From Escherichia phage vB_EcoM_SYGD1: a stretch of DNA of 64,000 nt. Within the stretch, counting starts at the first letter, position 1. Each line of letters starts with the position of its first letter. A model generated the notes under the pieces. The model was not told where the DNA came from. It did not search any database and worked only from the letters and a program-made list of their open reading frames with translations. Below, piece by piece: positions 36,735 to 42,154 of the stretch. Where the stretch lies: the sequence record MW883059; one strand, given 5' to 3'. The position numbers and the translations under genes were made by a program.

Positions 36735-37060
36735 TGACAGACACGCAACTTTTCGAATATCTTTATTTTTCGCCAAAAACTATTAAAAATAAATTGGTGA
36801 ATCATTTTGAAATTTTGGCAAATAACAACGTCTTGAGCGAATTTTATCCTAAGCAATACAAATTACAAAAAGGCGTATTCAAAGGATGCAGAGTTTTGTG
36901 CACTGCTCCTAATGCAAGATTAATGAATAAAATTCCATATTTTACCATGGAATTTATTGATGGGCCTTTTAAAGGACTAATTACCCAAAGTTTAATGGCA
37001 TATGATTCTGAGCCATTTTTAATTAAAGAGCAATCTTGGATAAATTTATTTTCTAATTGA
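36731..37060 (+). CDS. Hypothetical protein
   Basis: ATGA overlap with preceding ORF; ORF 36680-37060. Confidence 0.35.
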
Positions 37061-37068
37061 GAGGTTAT

Positions 37069-37431
37069 ATGAAAGCATATCAAATTCTTGAAGGCACGCA
37101 TAAAGGTACTATTTATTTTGAAGACGGTATTCAAGCACGAATTATTGTCTCTAAAACCTTTAAAGAGGACTCTTTTGTAGACCCAGAAATTTTCTATGGT
37201 TTGCATGCCCGTGAAATTGAAATTGAAACACAACCTACAGTTAAAATTGAAGGTGGTCAACACCTGAACGTTAACGTTCTGCGTCGTGAAACTCTGGAAG
37301 ATGCAGTTAAGCATCCGGAAAAATATCCGCAGCTGACCATCCGTGTATCCGGTTATGCAGTTCGCTTTAACTCTCTGACTCCGGAACAGCAGCGCGACGT
37401 TATCGCTCGTACCTTTACCGAGAGTCTGTAA
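37069..37431 (+). CDS. Autonomous glycyl radical cofactor (GrcA/YfiD-like)
   Basis: C-terminal roughly 60 aa ([62 protein letters not shown]) match E. coli GrcA from memory, including glycyl radical motif RVSGYAV; host-like codon usage in this part. Confidence 0.8.
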
Positions 37432-37652: not shown

Positions 37653-37911
37653 AGATATTAAGGGTTATAAGCCGCACACTGAAGAGAAAATCGGTAAAGT
37701 GAATGCTATCAAAGACGCTGAAGTTCGTTTAGGACTTATCTTTGATGCTTTATATGATGAATTCTGGGAAGCACTAGATAATTGTGAAGATTGTGAATTC
37801 GCGAAGAATTATGCCGAAAGCCTCGATCAGTTAACTATTGCTAAAACGAAACTCAAAGAAGCCAGTATGTGGGCTTGTCGTGCAGTGTTCCAACCAGAGG
37901 AAAAATACTAA
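37645..37911 (+). CDS. Hypothetical protein
   Basis: 88 aa ORF. Confidence 0.35.
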
Positions 37912-38189
37912 TGGCTCAATTAAGCGCAGGGTTTGGTTATGAGTATTATACTGCCCCTCGTCGTGTATCTGTTGCTCCTAAGAAAATTCAAAGTCTTGAT
38001 GACTTCCAGGAAGTAGTCCGTAACGCTTTCCAGGATTATGCACGTTATCTTAAAGAAGATTCGCAGGACTGTCTCGAAGAAGATGAAATTGCTTACTATA
38101 CGCAGCGTCTTGAACAGCTCAAAAATCTACATGAGGTTCGTGCAGAAGTTTCAAAGTCTATGAATAAATTGATTAGATTTAAAGAATAA
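37911..38189 (+). CDS. Hypothetical protein
   Basis: ORF 37869-38189; start at MAQLSAGF (TAATG overlap) assumed. Confidence 0.35.
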
Positions 38190-38190
38190 C

Positions 38191-38220
38191 TGTTTACTTT
38201 TCCTCTTGACTGTGGTATAA
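38191..38220 (+). promoter_or_regulatory. T4-type early promoter
   Basis: gtttac, 18 nt, TGgTATAAT. Confidence 0.65.
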
Positions 38221-38248
38221 TTTTTCTATCAGTTAAGAGGAGAACAAC

Positions 38249-38710
38249 ATGACTATCAATACAGAAGTTTTTATCCGTCGAAATAAGCTTCGTCGTCACT
38301 TTGAGTCAGAGTTTCGTCAAATTAACAATGAGATTCGTGAGGCATCAAAAGCAGCAGGGGTCTCATCGTTTCATCTAAAATATTCTCAGCATCTCCTTGA
38401 TCGTGCAATTCAACGGGAGATTGATGAGACATATGTTTTTGAATTATTCCACAAAATAAAAGACCATGTTTTAGAAGTTAATGAATTCCTGAGTATGCCT
38501 CCGCGTCCTGACATTGACGAGGATTTTATTGATGGGGTTGAATACCGTCCTGGACGTTTAGAAATCACAGATGGAAATCTTTGGCTTGGATTTACAGTTT
38601 GTAAACCTAATGAGAAGTTCAAAGACCCGTCACTTCAATGTAGGATGGCAATTATTAACAGTCGTCGTTTACCAGGAAAGGCTTCTAAAGCAGTAATTAA
38701 AACTCAATGA
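38249..38710 (+). CDS. regB: Endoribonuclease RegB
   Basis: 153 aa as T4 RegB; position between denV and tk; strong early promoter. Confidence 0.6.
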   Translation: MTINTEVFIRRNKLRRHFESEFRQINNEIREASKAAGVSSFHLKYSQHLLDRAIQREIDETYVFELFHKIKDHVLEVNEFLSMPPRPDIDEDFIDGVEYRPGRLEITDGNLWLGFTVCKPNEKFKDPSLQCRMAIINSRRLPGKASKAVIKTQ

Positions 38711-38717
38711 GGTAAGC

Positions 38718-39263
38718 ATGAGAAAAGCACTACTCGCTGGTCTATTGGCCATTTCAATGATGGCACATAGCTCCGAGCATACTTTCAGTAATGTCCAACT
38801 CGATAACATGCGTTACGCGTATCAATTCGGGGAACAATTTTCTAAGGATGGAAAATATAAAACACACAAAAATATCCATAAGAGCGGATTAGGTCATATA
38901 ATGGCTGCTATTTTATGGCAAGAAAGCTCTGCCGGAGTTAATTTAAAATCTAAACCAAAGCATCATGCCTACGGAATGTTCCAAAACTATTTGCCAACTA
39001 TGCGAGCAAGAGTTAAGGAACTTGGTTATAATATGACTGATGCTGAAATAAAAAGAATGTTGAATAAACGGTCCAATTCAGCTTCCTGGGCGTACATTGA
39101 ACTTTCTTATTGGTTAAATATACATAAGGGCGATATAAGAAAGGCGATATCCTCTTATAATTCGGGATGGAATGTTAAAGCAGGTTCTAAATATGCTTCT
39201 GAAGTCCTAGAAAAGGCTAACTACCTTAAAAATAATAAACTTTTGGAAATAGTAAATGACTAA
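38718..39263 (+). CDS. Periplasmic lytic transglycosylase-like protein
   Basis: N-terminal signal peptide; SLT-like motifs WQESSAG (catalytic Glu-Ser), YGMFQ, AISSYNSG. Confidence 0.5.
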   Translation: MRKALLAGLLAISMMAHSSEHTFSNVQLDNMRYAYQFGEQFSKDGKYKTHKNIHKSGLGHIMAAILWQESSAGVNLKSKPKHHAYGMFQNYLPTMRARVKELGYNMTDAEIKRMLNKRSNSASWAYIELSYWLNIHKGDIRKAISSYNSGWNVKAGSKYASEVLEKANYLKNNKLLEIVND

Positions 39264-39597
39264 AATTTTGGTTTTATGTATAGGATTAATTTCATTTTCT
39301 GCGTTAGCAAATACATCATATACTGAAATTAGAGAGTATGTAAACCGTACTGCCGCGGATTATTGCGGGAAAAATAAAGCATGCCAAGCTGAATTTGCGC
39401 AGAAATTAATATATGCATATAAAGACGGAGAAAGAGATAAATCAAGCAGATACAAGAACGATACTTTATTAAAACGATATGCTAAAAAGTGGAATACCTT
39501 AGAATGTTCAGTTGCGGAGGAGAAAGATAAAGCCGCTTGTCATTCAATGGTTGACCGTTTAGTAGATTCTTATAATCGAGGATTGAGTACTAAATGA
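39256..39597 (+). CDS. Small secreted Cys-containing protein, hypothetical
   Basis: Signal peptide MTKILVLCIGLISFSALA; four Cys; overlaps neighbours at both ends. Confidence 0.4.
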   Translation: MTKILVLCIGLISFSALANTSYTEIREYVNRTAADYCGKNKACQAEFAQKLIYAYKDGERDKSSRYKNDTLLKRYAKKWNTLECSVAEEKDKAACHSMVDRLVDSYNRGLSTK

Positions 39598-40061
39598 TTG
39601 TAAAATATATCAAGGGCGATATTGTCGCCCTTTTCACTGAAGGTAAAAATATTGCGCATGGATGCAATTGTTTTCATACGATGAAAGCTGGAGTCGCAGG
39701 TCAATTAACCAAAGCTTTCCCTAAAATTTTGGAAGCTGATAAATTACAGACTGAATGGGGTGATGTAACTAAACTCGGTTCTTACTCAGTCTATGAAAAA
39801 TACTTTAGGACTCATAAAGCGTATTGCTTCAACCTTTATACTCAATTTCAACCAGGGCCAAATTTTGAATATTCCGCTTTAATGAATTGTATGTTAGAAT
39901 TAAATGAGTTTGGTGAAAATAAACTGATTAAACCTACAATCTATATGCCTAGGATTGGTGCAGGCATAGGTAAAGGGAACTGGGATATTATTGAGGGGAT
40001 TTTAGATACATATTCCTCTAAATTAGAAATTGTGATTGTTGATTGGGAACCATTATTATGA
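39594..40061 (+). CDS. Macro-domain protein (putative ADP-ribose binding / hydrolase)
   Basis: Motif layout GDI...NIAHGCNCFHTMKAGVAGQ ... PRIGAGIGKGNWD resembles macro domain Gly-rich phosphate loops; 155 aa. Confidence 0.5.
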   Translation: MIVKYIKGDIVALFTEGKNIAHGCNCFHTMKAGVAGQLTKAFPKILEADKLQTEWGDVTKLGSYSVYEKYFRTHKAYCFNLYTQFQPGPNFEYSALMNCMLELNEFGENKLIKPTIYMPRIGAGIGKGNWDIIEGILDTYSSKLEIVIVDWEPLL

Positions 40062-40270
40062 ATATACATTATCCACATCCATATGACCCAAAGAATAAGG
40101 CAGTAATTATTCGTCAATGGGAACGCATTTGCCGTACTAAATGTCCAATTAATAGTCCACATGATGTAGATAAAGACTACATTGGAACATTCGTTGAATA
40201 TACCTTTATTGATAAGAAAGGTCGTAAACAGCATGTAGAAGAATACTGCTTAAAGGTTACATGGTTATGA
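40058..40270 (+). CDS. Hypothetical protein
   Basis: ORF 40043-40270; ATG at 40058 assumed. Confidence 0.3.
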   Translation: MNIHYPHPYDPKNKAVIIRQWERICRTKCPINSPHDVDKDYIGTFVEYTFIDKKGRKQHVEEYCLKVTWL

Positions 40271-40473
40271 GCCAAACTAGTATTCTTAAAAATGCCCATT
40301 GTGAAAAGTGTAAATGGCCAGTTGTTTTTGCTTTATGCAACGATGAAATGGCTTGTGATTTCGATTATTGGTGCTATTGTTCTAATAAAGGATGCATCAA
40401 TCATAAAGGTGAAGGATTTTATTCGGGATTTTATCCTTATCCAGATTTCGTTAAAGAAGGTAAACCGAAATGA
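40261..40473 (+). CDS. Hypothetical Cys-rich small protein
   Basis: 70 aa with nine Cys (CEKCKW..., C..C..C). Confidence 0.35.
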   Translation: MVMSQTSILKNAHCEKCKWPVVFALCNDEMACDFDYWCYCSNKGCINHKGEGFYSGFYPYPDFVKEGKPK

Positions 40474-40643
40474 ATAGTTCTGAGTTACAATATGAAGTGT
40501 CACGTGAACTTGATAATTTAATTGAACTCGCTGCTAATAAAGGTTTTGCCATTGGAATTGGCCAAAAAGATACTGATCATTTAACTATGGAAATATTTAA
40601 GCAAAAGCGAATTATTTTAAAACTTCTGGAAATTAATATATGA
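40470..40643 (+). CDS. Small helical protein (possible member of the paralog family)
   Basis: 57 aa, ATGA-coupled to neighbours; not in ORF track (under 60 aa). Confidence 0.3.
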   Translation: MNSSELQYEVSRELDNLIELAANKGFAIGIGQKDTDHLTMEIFKQKRIILKLLEINI

Positions 40644-40825
40644 GCCTAAGCAAAGAACAAAAAGACAGACTCTTTTCTCTTATCCACGAAGTTATGGATA
40701 AAAATAGTGAATTGGAAAAAGTTTGTAATGAATGCGGTCCTTTTAGCGCAAACGAGTACGAAGAACTTTCTAAAGAATTCGATAATAAAGAACAAGAACT
40801 CATTGATTATATAAATTCCTTATGA
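40640..40825 (+). CDS. Small helical protein, paralog family member
   Basis: 61 aa; shares M-x-x-x-EQ...L..L pattern with five other ORFs. Confidence 0.4.
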   Translation: MSLSKEQKDRLFSLIHEVMDKNSELEKVCNECGPFSANEYEELSKEFDNKEQELIDYINSL

Positions 40826-41010
40826 TTACTCGCGAACAAAAGAACGAAATATTATTTTTAGTTGGTGAAATTATTAGTTTAGAAAAGGATTTGTCTTTTG
40901 AAATATCTTCTGAATATGGAGATGCCGAAACATATTACGAATTAGTAAAATCTATCGATAAAGCTGAAAATGATTTAAAAACATATTTAGAAAATTTAAC
41001 TAAGGATTAA
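40822..41010 (+). CDS. Small helical protein, paralog family member
   Basis: 62 aa; family pattern. Confidence 0.4.
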   Translation: MITREQKNEILFLVGEIISLEKDLSFEISSEYGDAETYYELVKSIDKAENDLKTYLENLTKD

Positions 41011-41011
41011 A

Positions 41012-41593
41012 ATGGCGAGTTTAATTTTTACTTATGCAGCAATGAATGCTGGAAAATCTGCTTCTCTTTTGACTGCTGCACATAATTATAAAGAACGTGG
41101 AATGAGTGTATTAGTTCTTAAGCCTGCTATTGATACTCGCGATTCTGTCTGCGAAGTCGTTTCTCGCATTGGAATTAAGCAGGAAGCAAATATTATTACA
41201 GATGATATGGATATTTTCGAGTTCTATAAATGGGCTGAAGCACAAAAAGATATTCATTGCGTATTTGTAGATGAAGCCCAGTTTTTAAAAACTGAACAGG
41301 TGCATCAATTGAGCCGAATTGTTGATACATATAATGTTCCTGTTATGGCTTATGGATTAAGGACTGATTTCGCTGGAAAATTGTTTGAAGGTTCTAAAGA
41401 ACTTTTGGCGATTGCAGATAAACTTATTGAACTAAAGGCAGTTTGTCATTGTAGTAAAAAAGCTATTATGACAGCTCGATTAATGGAAGATGGAACACCC
41501 GTTAAAGAAGGTAATCAAATCTGTATTGGTGATGAAATTTATGTTTCTTTGTGTAGAAAACATTGGAATGAATTAACTAAAAAGCTTGGTTAG
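41012..41593 (+). CDS. tk: Thymidine kinase
   Basis: 193 aa; P-loop AAMNAGKSASLL; C-terminal Cys cluster. Confidence 0.9.
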   Translation: MASLIFTYAAMNAGKSASLLTAAHNYKERGMSVLVLKPAIDTRDSVCEVVSRIGIKQEANIITDDMDIFEFYKWAEAQKDIHCVFVDEAQFLKTEQVHQLSRIVDTYNVPVMAYGLRTDFAGKLFEGSKELLAIADKLIELKAVCHCSKKAIMTARLMEDGTPVKEGNQICIGDEIYVSLCRKHWNELTKKLG

Positions 41594-41635
41594 TGCAAAA
41601 GTTATAAATAGGTTTATCTAACTAAAGGGGTATAT

Positions 41636-41848
41636 ATGCTACAATTAACTGAAAAGCAACTTCGCAATCTTACCGTTCTTCAATTAGATGAAATTCGTAG
41701 GGAAGTTGGAAATATCATTTCAGCTTTGCGTCGAGAAGTATCACTCAACCAATCTCCGGCAGACTATACTAGATTGCGAAATTTTGAAAAATACCTTGAT
41801 AAAGTTAAGGCCGTGCATCGGCATAAAGTAAATACAGGGCAAAAATGA
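41636..41848 (+). CDS. Hypothetical protein (rI.1 position)
   Basis: 70 aa; position between tk and rI. Confidence 0.35.
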
Positions 41849-41860
41849 TAGGAGGCCTTT

Positions 41861-42154
41861 ATGGCCTTAAAAGCAACGGCACTATTTGCCATGCTAGGAT
41901 TGTCATTTGTTTTATCTCCATCGATTGAAGCGAATGTCGATCCTCATTTTGATAAATTTATGGAATCTGGTATTAGGCACGTTTATATGCTTTTTGAAAA
42001 TAAAAGCGTAGAATCGTCTGAACAATTCTATAGTTTTATGAGAACGACCTATAAAAATGACCCGTGCTCTTCTGATTTTGAATGTATAGAACGAGGCGCG
42101 GAGATGGCACAATCATACGCTAGAATTATGAACATTAAATTGGAGACTGAATGA
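41861..42154 (+). CDS. rI: Lysis inhibition regulator RI (antiholin)
   Basis: 97 aa as T4 RI; N-terminal signal-anchor hydrophobic segment; adjacent to tk. Confidence 0.6.
   Translation: MALKATALFAMLGLSFVLSPSIEANVDPHFDKFMESGIRHVYMLFENKSVESSEQFYSFMRTTYKNDPCSSDFECIERGAEMAQSYARIMNIKLETE

Follow-up and report, generated by a model that had tools for sequence, protein, structure and literature searches.

In bacteriophage T4, two small genes lie between regB and tk.4. The first, vs.1, encodes a product listed in UniProt as an 'uncharacterized 20.7 kDa protein in regB-vs region' (P13311; phrog_600), and the second, vs, encodes the 'valyl-tRNA synthetase modifier' (P13310; phrog_1256; PF26829), which is annotated as a factor binding the host valyl-tRNA synthetase (ValRS) (Muller and Marchin 1975/1977, as cited in PMC8076793). 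A match of vs.1 to the SLT domain was described in six out of six T4-like genomes by Nolan et al. (2006; PMC1524935), who credited earlier PSI-BLAST matches to the T4 genome review and suggested 'some role in cell lysis'; current GenBank records name Vs.1 'transglycosylase SLT domain-containing protein'. Both genes, and the SLT similarity of vs.1 (in print since 2003–2006), are already known. Here, we analyzed the corresponding genes in a 64 000-nt stretch of DNA from Escherichia phage vB_EcoM_SYGD1 (sequence record MW883059; hereafter, the window), and add the secretory character of Vs and its conserved place directly after vs.1 in close T4 relatives.

Several described systems can be compared with this locus. 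Vs.1 shares 13–18% identity with the family 1 lytic transglycosylases of Escherichia coli (the Slt70 catalytic domain, MltE/EmtA, MltC and MltF), but differs from them in that it consists of a single 163-residue domain with an additional helix and hairpin near its N-terminus (residues 25–58), has neither a lipid anchor nor accessory domains, and is phage-encoded and expressed early. Compared with the transglycosylases of secretion and conjugation systems (EtgA, VirB1, IpgF and P19), vs.1 has no adjacent envelope-spanning machine; its neighbors are regB, vs, tk.4 and tk rather than a secretion, pilus or flagellar cluster, spanin genes adjoin it in one relative only, and Vs is unrelated to EscI. 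The virion-associated phage transglycosylases (the N-terminal domain of T7 gp16, and phiKZ gp144) are parts of large virion proteins used for entry, or endolysins, whereas Vs.1 is a free, non-structural protein of the early/middle period that is predicted to be secreted. A preliminary description of the locus, made from the bare sequence, had set the enzyme apart from the gp5 and e lysozymes, and our results support that distinction. For a small protein beside a wall-degrading enzyme, T4 provides Spackle (structure paper, PMC7677548), the periplasmic inhibitor of a phage muramidase, the lysozyme domain of gp5; Spackle, too, is small, made early and equipped with a signal peptide.

The vs.1 and vs genes of a Tequatrovirus

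We identified the window as Tequatrovirus (T4-type phage) DNA from its 98% DNA identity to many Tequatroviruses and its T4 gene order. A search with bases 38200–40100 matched 656 phage records; in 651 the match covered at least 80% of the query, and the top matches (98% identity) came mostly from Escherichia and Shigella Tequatroviruses. On the plus strand, which carries all features described below unless otherwise stated, regB is followed by an open reading frame (ORF) at 38718–39263, a second ORF at 39256–39597, a macro-domain gene, several small ORFs and the thymidine kinase gene, and this order equals regB, vs.1, vs, tk.4 ... tk of T4. The product of the first ORF is identical to T4 Vs.1 at 180 of 181 residues (99%), the sole substitution being A72 in the window for G72 in T4, and occupies the same place between regB and vs. 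The product of the second is identical to T4 Vs at 110 of 115 residues (96%), with a 2-residue deletion in the signal-peptide c-region (SALA|NT in the window, SASASA|DT in T4) and with the same overlaps with vs.1 and tk.4. These sequence comparisons identify the two ORFs as T4 vs.1 and vs, carried by a Tequatrovirus.

The vs.1 gene (38718–39263) has an ATG start codon with GAGG upstream, and encodes a 181-aa precursor predicted to be a secreted, single-domain protein of the SLT/GH23 (family 1 lytic-transglycosylase-like) type. It overlaps the start of vs by 8 nt (39256–39263, ATGACTAA), an arrangement likely to couple the translation of the two genes. The vs gene (39256–39597) encodes a 113-aa precursor of a small basic protein with four predicted helices and four conserved Cys residues. 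Both ORFs and their overlap are as the preliminary description gave them, and its reading of an SLT fold, signal peptides and pairing held up, the pairing more firmly than was then apparent. It missed, however, the identity of the genes as T4 vs.1 and vs and the published SLT similarity: the ORFs are not new, and the small protein, described there as a secreted Cys-containing partner, had long been annotated as the modifier of a cytoplasmic enzyme, the host valyl-tRNA synthetase.

Gene names have drifted in the databases. In GenBank and UniRef, Vs is often named 'valyl-tRNA synthetase', with 'modifier' dropped, and Vs.1 homologs are named 'endoribonuclease', 'RegB' or 'site-specific RNA endonuclease', apparently taken from the adjoining regB.

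Predicted fold and export of Vs.1 and Vs

A search of 5.8 billion proteins returned 77 clusters of Vs.1 homologs at 40–99% identity, all 119–188 aa in length. The Pfam SLT family (PF01464) matched residues 61–154 of Vs.1 with an E-value of 4.8e-5 and 23.4 bits (curated cut-off, 21.3), and precomputed PF01464 matches were present on 17 of the 77 clusters; by sequence score, Vs.1 falls marginally within this family. We aligned 24 homologs (42–83% identity) and found Glu69, G86, F88, Q89, Y147, N148 and G150 to be invariant, and the Glu of the E-S motif was also kept in six more distant phage homologs. The E-S motif (WQESS) contains Glu69, the predicted catalytic acid (codon at 38922–38924). Motif II, G86-M-F-Q89 (38973–38984), appears as G-L-M-Q in Slt70 and EmtA, and motif III, S146-Y-N-S-G150 (39153–39167), as A-Y-N-x-G in family 1 transglycosylases. 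For the motif alignments, slt and emtA were translated from E. coli K-12. Glu69 stood opposite Glu478 of Slt70 (IARQESAWN) and Glu64 of EmtA (IAIESGGN), with GLMQ (ASGLMQ in Slt70) and AYNAG (AAYNAG in Slt70) colinear after it. Comparison of the Vs.1 family with Slt70 and EmtA by hidden Markov model (HMM) and HH methods was statistically non-significant, and was used for motif colinearity only.

An AlphaFold2 (AF2) model of Vs.1, built on the homolog alignment, had a confidence (predicted local distance difference test, pLDDT) of 87.5, falling to about 54 for residues 1–20. The model showed a lysozyme-like alpha-helical fold in which E69-S70 lie at the end of helix 59–70. Taken together, these results support an SLT/GH23-type fold with a conserved Glu at the catalytic position. 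The motifs WQE69SS, AYG86MFQ89 and S146YNSG150, behind a predicted signal peptide, are present as first noted, and the two points on which that reading had been staked, a predicted SLT fold and conservation of the catalytic Glu, both came out in its favor. The chemistry of Vs.1 may be that of a transglycosylase or of a hydrolase, because g-type lysozymes share the fold; what sets family 1 transglycosylases apart from these lysozymes is a non-hydrolytic cleavage that yields 1,6-anhydro-MurNAc.

We searched for export signals using a rule of our own, which called for K/R in the n-region, an uncharged hydrophobic core of at least nine residues and small residues at –3 and –1. Only 6 of the 91 plus-strand ORFs of at least 60 aa in the window passed, one of them encoding the known periplasmic protein RI. 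Both proteins of interest passed. The N-terminus of Vs.1, MRKALLAGLLAISMMAHS|SEHTF, resembles a signal peptide (aa 1–18; 38718–38771) with putative cleavage at AHS|SE, after which the mature protein would begin with SEHTFSNVQLDNMR. That of Vs, MTKILVLCIGLISFSALA|NTSYT, resembles one as well (aa 1–18; 39256–39309), with putative cleavage at ALA|NT and an AF2 pLDDT below 50. Both families share this character, which the preliminary description had seen in the two proteins: the rule was passed by 24 of 24 Vs.1 homologs, whose predicted access to peptidoglycan depends on this rule, and by 36 of 38 Vs homologs, the two failures being N-terminally truncated gene calls. In the full-length Vs homologs, both the sequence and the length of the first 20 residues vary, but their hydrophobicity behind Lys/Arg is kept.

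In five loci and in the protein P0120, a lipobox (ALSGC) takes the place of the Vs signal peptide. Such a replacement makes sense only for an exported protein. The Vs homologs of this clade (...FALSGCK..., without an AXA site; L033:4549–4875, L034, L036, L037, L049 and P0120) are predicted lipoproteins. The Vs of the window was considered as a lipoprotein and rejected as such; its Cys8 has no preceding lipobox and is not conserved. Full-length, N-terminally His-tagged Vs was insoluble in the E. coli cytoplasm and formed inclusion bodies (PMC8076793).

Vs contains five Cys residues, namely Cys8 in the predicted signal peptide and C37, C43, C84 and C95 in the mature part, and the four Cys counted in the preliminary description are therefore right for the mature part and not for the whole protein. 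Membership of the Vs family followed from the 96% identity to T4 Vs, a match to phrog_1256 (1e-39) and PF26829 on all profile matches. A single-sequence search yielded 6 clusters of homologs and a profile search 41, all of 77–123 aa and all PF26829. An exhaustive profile search of 1.84 billion representatives gave eight matches, all of the Vs family, with no bacterial homolog, and because of this result the family is, as far as such searches reach, confined to these phages. An alignment of 38 Vs sequences, the most divergent at 42% identity, had all four Cys of the mature part, as well as the C-terminal block SMV(D)R(LV)D.Y.RGL, invariant or almost so; for the Cys, invariance extended to about 20% identity.

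The AF2 model of Vs (pLDDT 86) contains helices at residues 20–37, 41–63, 68–84 and 89–110, all above 93, whereas residues 1–18 are disordered and not packed on the fold. The first invariant pair, C37/C43 (C-x5-C; 39364–39384), flanks the turn between helices 1 and 2, and the second, C84/C95 (39505–39540), flanks that between helices 3 and 4. Across the family, the spacings are C-x5–6-C and C-x8–14-C at helical turns, unlike those of zinc knuckles. We infer from the model, as its natural reading, two disulfides that would staple the two hairpins. A zinc site formed by the four Cys was considered as well; it is possible, with atypical spacings. The mature protein would have 95 aa, a mass of 11.0 kDa and an isoelectric point (pI) of 9.0, compared with 12.9 kDa for the precursor. 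No fold relative of Vs was found, and neither its fold nor its sequence resembled the known lysozyme and transglycosylase inhibitors Ivy, MliC/PliC, PliG, Spackle and Tsi3.

A 27-nt direct repeat, 74% identical between its copies, links the codons of SYNSGWNVK at motif III of vs.1 (39153–39179) with the last codons of vs, SYNRGLSTK (39568–39594). It is probably due to chance, since distant Vs homologs do not keep SYNxG. Rfam and repeat scans of 37800–40300 gave nothing real, the best results being MicX at an E-value of 0.84 and this two-copy repeat.

Pairing of vs.1 and vs across phages

We examined 50 IMG/VR loci encoding Vs.1 relatives at 31–100% identity. In 49 of them, the vs.1 stop is followed, at –8 to +3 nt, by the start of a Vs-family ORF of 99–118 aa that has a signal peptide and the same four-Cys pattern. 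The first Vs profile was weak or silent on the downstream ORFs of divergent loci (Vs.1 identity approximately 39–75%). These ORFs nevertheless proved to be Vs homologs (hhalign probability 98.7%, E = 2e-16, four Cys aligned; phrog_1256, 1.1e-32). The adjacency holds in Tevenvirinae-type phages of Escherichia, Klebsiella, Serratia, Aeromonas and Acinetobacter, with varying genes on either side. Upstream, regB was not detected in L046–L048 and L052. Downstream, vs is followed by tk.4 or, in 20 of the 50 loci, by a third secreted ORF (phrog_4957) that the window and T4 lack. No Vs.1–Vs fusion ('Rosetta stone') was found, as the longest homologs had 188 aa (Vs.1) and 123 aa (Vs).

Over 50 697 phage records, tblastn found 2084 that encode a Vs.1 relative and 795 with a recognizable Vs; Vs.1-type genes occur across Straboviridae, Ackermannviridae and Felixounavirus. 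These counts and the relatives without Vs indicate that Vs never occurs without Vs.1, whereas Vs.1 often occurs without Vs. Vs also evolves much faster, with a mean pairwise distance of 0.58 compared with 0.33 for Vs.1. In phage vB_EcoM_005 (L016:4541–4798), an in-frame deletion of 99 nt in vs removes C37/C43 and most of helix 2 and leaves the signal peptide and the C-terminal half, and vs.1 is intact.

Other arrangements were seen in individual lineages. The phrog_4957 ORF encodes about 140 aa with a signal peptide and two conserved Cys (L046:4842–5267, L030:4869–5303, L045:4857–5303 and 17 more loci), and phages bearing it have a three-gene cluster of predicted secreted proteins, whereas T4 and the window pass from vs to tk.4. 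In the most distant locus (L052:3929–5152; 31% identity to Vs.1), vs is missing between the SLT-like gene and the macro-domain (tk.4-like) gene that comes after it. In Citrobacter phage Ci1 (L060:1995–3182), the Vs.1 homolog (phrog_600, 6.5e-42) overlaps an i-spanin gene (phrog_739) by 8 nt, followed by o-spanin (phrog_812) and pseT, and one Chrysonvirus and one Felixounavirus also have their SLT gene close to a pseT-like kinase gene.

Expression, fitness and alternative explanations

Upstream of regB lies a sigma-70-type promoter-like site, TTTACT-17-TATAAT with a TG (38193–38221), the best plus-strand match in 37800–41700. On sequence grounds, it is the probable early promoter of a unit regB-vs.1-vs-tk.4...tk. 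Because no plus-strand terminator-like site was found before tk, vs.1 and vs would be co-transcribed; the number of terminator-like sites in the region was not above that expected from shuffled sequences. The upstream neighbor regB (38249–38710) encodes an endoribonuclease (Pfam REGB_T4, 8.1e-69), and the downstream neighbor tk.4 (39594–40061), which overlaps vs by 4 nt, encodes a macro-domain protein (Pfam Macro, 1.9e-5); both are placed as in T4, as is tk (41012–41593). A terminator-like hairpin on the minus strand (39612–39632; 8-bp stem, five G-C pairs, T-run) lies inside the start of tk.4. The rI antiholin homolog, another periplasm-directed early gene, is at 41861–42154, with the vs.1/vs pair about 2.3 kb upstream of it. 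On the other side, ORF 37057–37431 has a C-terminal glycyl-radical motif (...RVSGYAVRF...) and is the counterpart of T4 vs.6, a gene that carries the annotation autonomous glycyl radical cofactor GrcA both in T4 and in phage LH2.

In published T4 data, vs.1 and vs have early RNA and middle-class protein, and mass spectrometry detected both proteins rising in parallel at similar intensities (approximately 1e7–1e8), several-fold below their neighbors; the early expression proposed in the preliminary description thus holds in T4. Both genes were non-essential in the T4 HIDEN-SEQ transposon screen. In liquid LB competition, mean insertion counts were 26.6 for vs and 22.6 for vs.1, compared with 130–760 for regB, tk.4, vs.3 and other non-essential neighbors. 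In M9 glucose, vs was the strongest hit in the comparison (log2 –2.19, adjusted P = 0), and vs.1 showed a log2 value of –0.87 (P = 0.0055, adjusted P = 0.155). A clean T4 vs deletion gave poor plaques on M9 glucose only.

We propose the following scheme of export, activity, disulfide formation and Vs.1–Vs contact. The two genes would be transcribed from the early promoter before regB, with translation coupled through the 8-nt overlap. Vs.1 would be made as a 20.7-kDa precursor, exported by Sec and processed to a single-domain SLT/GH23-type enzyme of 18.8 kDa, which may use Glu69 as single catalytic acid to cut the MurNAc-GlcNAc bond of the host sacculus and leave 1,6-anhydro-MurNAc ends. Vs, made beside it at similar abundance, would likewise be exported, and cleavage would leave a basic four-helix protein of 11 kDa with two disulfides. 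In the periplasm it would, we think, act on Vs.1 or together with it, either regulating or targeting the enzyme; we propose this partnership because the genes stay adjacent across Tevenvirinae-type phages while both flanks vary. In T4 the module is dispensable but raises phage fitness, above all in minimal medium; it probably conditions or remodels the host wall ahead of lysis, without being the lysis enzyme itself. An enzyme–partner relation of this kind is plausible from the genomic evidence, and we regard it as rather probable, though far from assured, that Vs.1 is an exported wall enzyme and Vs an exported protein acting with or on it in the periplasm, together forming a dispensable fitness module.

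Several observations weigh against this proposal. The Pfam SLT score is barely above its cut-off, PDB searches with the Vs.1 sequence and with the profiles of both families gave nothing significant, and NCBIfam gave nothing; the signal peptides were predicted with our own rule rather than SignalP. In the literature searched, we found no functional study of Vs.1 or of a Vs.1-type phage transglycosylase, and no enzymatic, localization or binding data for either protein. A secreted Vs.1-like gene, its E-S motif intact, is not followed by Vs in the Slopekvirus-like Klebsiella phage KM3, a Chrysonvirus, Citrobacter phage Ci1, a Kuttervirus (Ackermannviridae), a Felixounavirus and Vibrio phage K387. 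In a mirror-tree analysis of 43 non-redundant loci, the Vs.1–Vs Pearson correlation was 0.735, but the partial correlation controlling for Tk and RegB was 0.17, below the 0.62 of Vs.1–RegB, so there is no excess co-evolution, and in T4-like genomes genes mostly remain neighbors through inherited synteny. The vs.1 insertions may be polar on vs, and the fitness defect shared by the two genes is therefore not independent evidence. The clustered Cys could bind zinc in a cytoplasmic protein. Finally, Vs has for decades been assigned as a cytoplasmic ValRS-binding factor, and its minimal-medium phenotype fits a role in amino-acid charging at least as well as one in the wall.

This last assignment leads to the possibility that the two genes are functionally unrelated neighbors, Vs being the cytoplasmic ValRS-binding factor and Vs.1 a separate periplasmic wall enzyme, kept side by side by inherited synteny in a densely packed early operon; the hydrophobic N-terminus of Vs would then be unused for export, or only part of Vs would be exported. 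We consider this possible, if on balance unlikely. It agrees with the long-standing annotation and the biochemistry cited in PMC8076793, with a defect of the T4 vs deletion that is confined to minimal medium, on which cells have to make their own amino acids, and with the lack of excess co-evolution; overlapping genes are usual all through this operon, as the 4-nt overlap of vs and tk.4 illustrates, and other phages have SLT homologs without Vs. Mature Vs is basic as well as small. Purification of the synthetase factor in 1977 reportedly gave a polypeptide of about 10 kDa, a size to which mature Vs (11.0 kDa) comes at least as close as the precursor (12.9 kDa), and vs mutants are said to have been selected on valS(ts) hosts, which would imply an effect inside the cell. 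However, signal-peptide features are kept in all full-length Vs homologs despite the drift of their N-termini, one clade carries a lipobox, the four Cys are invariant with spacings unlike zinc knuckles, AF2 leaves residues 1–18 unpacked, and Vs with a blocked N-terminus is insoluble in the cytoplasm. Moreover, the vs.1–vs junction stays within –8 to +3 nt in 49 of 50 loci while the flanks change, and in the literature searched we found no primary evidence tying the vs mutations or the purified factor to this ORF. The features at odds with a cytoplasmic location, that is, the conserved signal peptide or lipobox, the invariant Cys and the unstructured N-terminus, are predictions, and their conflict with a ValRS role is beyond reconciling by sequence analysis. 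The stronger claim, that Vs is an exported, disulfide-bonded periplasmic partner of Vs.1 (a regulator, inhibitor or targeting subunit) and that ValRS modification comes from another ORF or is a secondary or in-extract effect, we put forward only tentatively, as a somewhat unlikely outcome.

The remaining explanations give the pair, or Vs.1 by itself, a more specific task. The preliminary description had raised an enzyme–inhibitor pair, in which Vs, in the manner of an immunity protein, would bind Vs.1 in the periplasm and restrain it, keeping the wall intact until holin-timed lysis. Predicted co-export, co-translation and similar abundance would suit such a pair, as would the faster evolution of Vs, which many inhibitors share, and the heavier cost of losing vs than vs.1 in M9 is what an unrestrained, harmful enzyme would produce. 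However, T4 without vs grows normally on LB, and vB_EcoM_005 is viable with a third of vs deleted in frame and vs.1 intact; Vs has no known inhibitor fold and shows no co-evolution signal; and the many phages with a secreted SLT enzyme and no Vs imply that the enzyme has no inherent need of an antidote. We therefore regard an inhibitor role as speculative and improbable. It appears equally improbable that Vs.1 is an auxiliary lysis or envelope-disruption factor acting late with spanins and endolysin, with Vs incidental. The suggestion of Nolan et al. (PMC1524935) points this way, as do the overlap of the Ci1 homolog with an i-spanin/o-spanin pair adjoining pseT and the position of the SLT gene of a Chrysonvirus and a Felixounavirus beside a pseT-like kinase gene, where T4 keeps its spanins. 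Against it, T4 vs.1 is transcribed early and its protein is middle class, long before lysis, the gene is non-essential, and the spanin association is found in one lineage only. Lysis by T4 is, moreover, fully explained by t, e and the pseT.3/pseT.2 spanins. Superinfection exclusion, also raised in the preliminary description, or resistance to lysis from without, would have Vs.1 target the wall where phage enter, or the incoming phage themselves. Like the known T4 exclusion proteins Imm and Spackle (Spackle structure paper, PMC7677548), Vs.1 is early and predicted to be periplasmic, and it is conserved in many virulent myoviruses; a wall-cutting enzyme, however, would be expected to help rather than hinder tail-tube penetration. 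Because T4 exclusion is already explained by imm and sp as well, we consider this explanation very improbable, and it remains speculation.

If Vs is periplasmic, a textbook T4 gene assignment would need to be revisited, and the gene with the strongest minimal-medium fitness effect in a recent T4 transposon screen would receive a different explanation. Secreted transglycosylases of the Vs.1 type are very common among large virulent myoviruses. If the proposed periplasmic partnership of Vs.1 and Vs is correct, the two proteins would constitute a conserved wall-remodeling module of T-even-type phages, with its greatest effect when hosts grow slowly in minimal medium.

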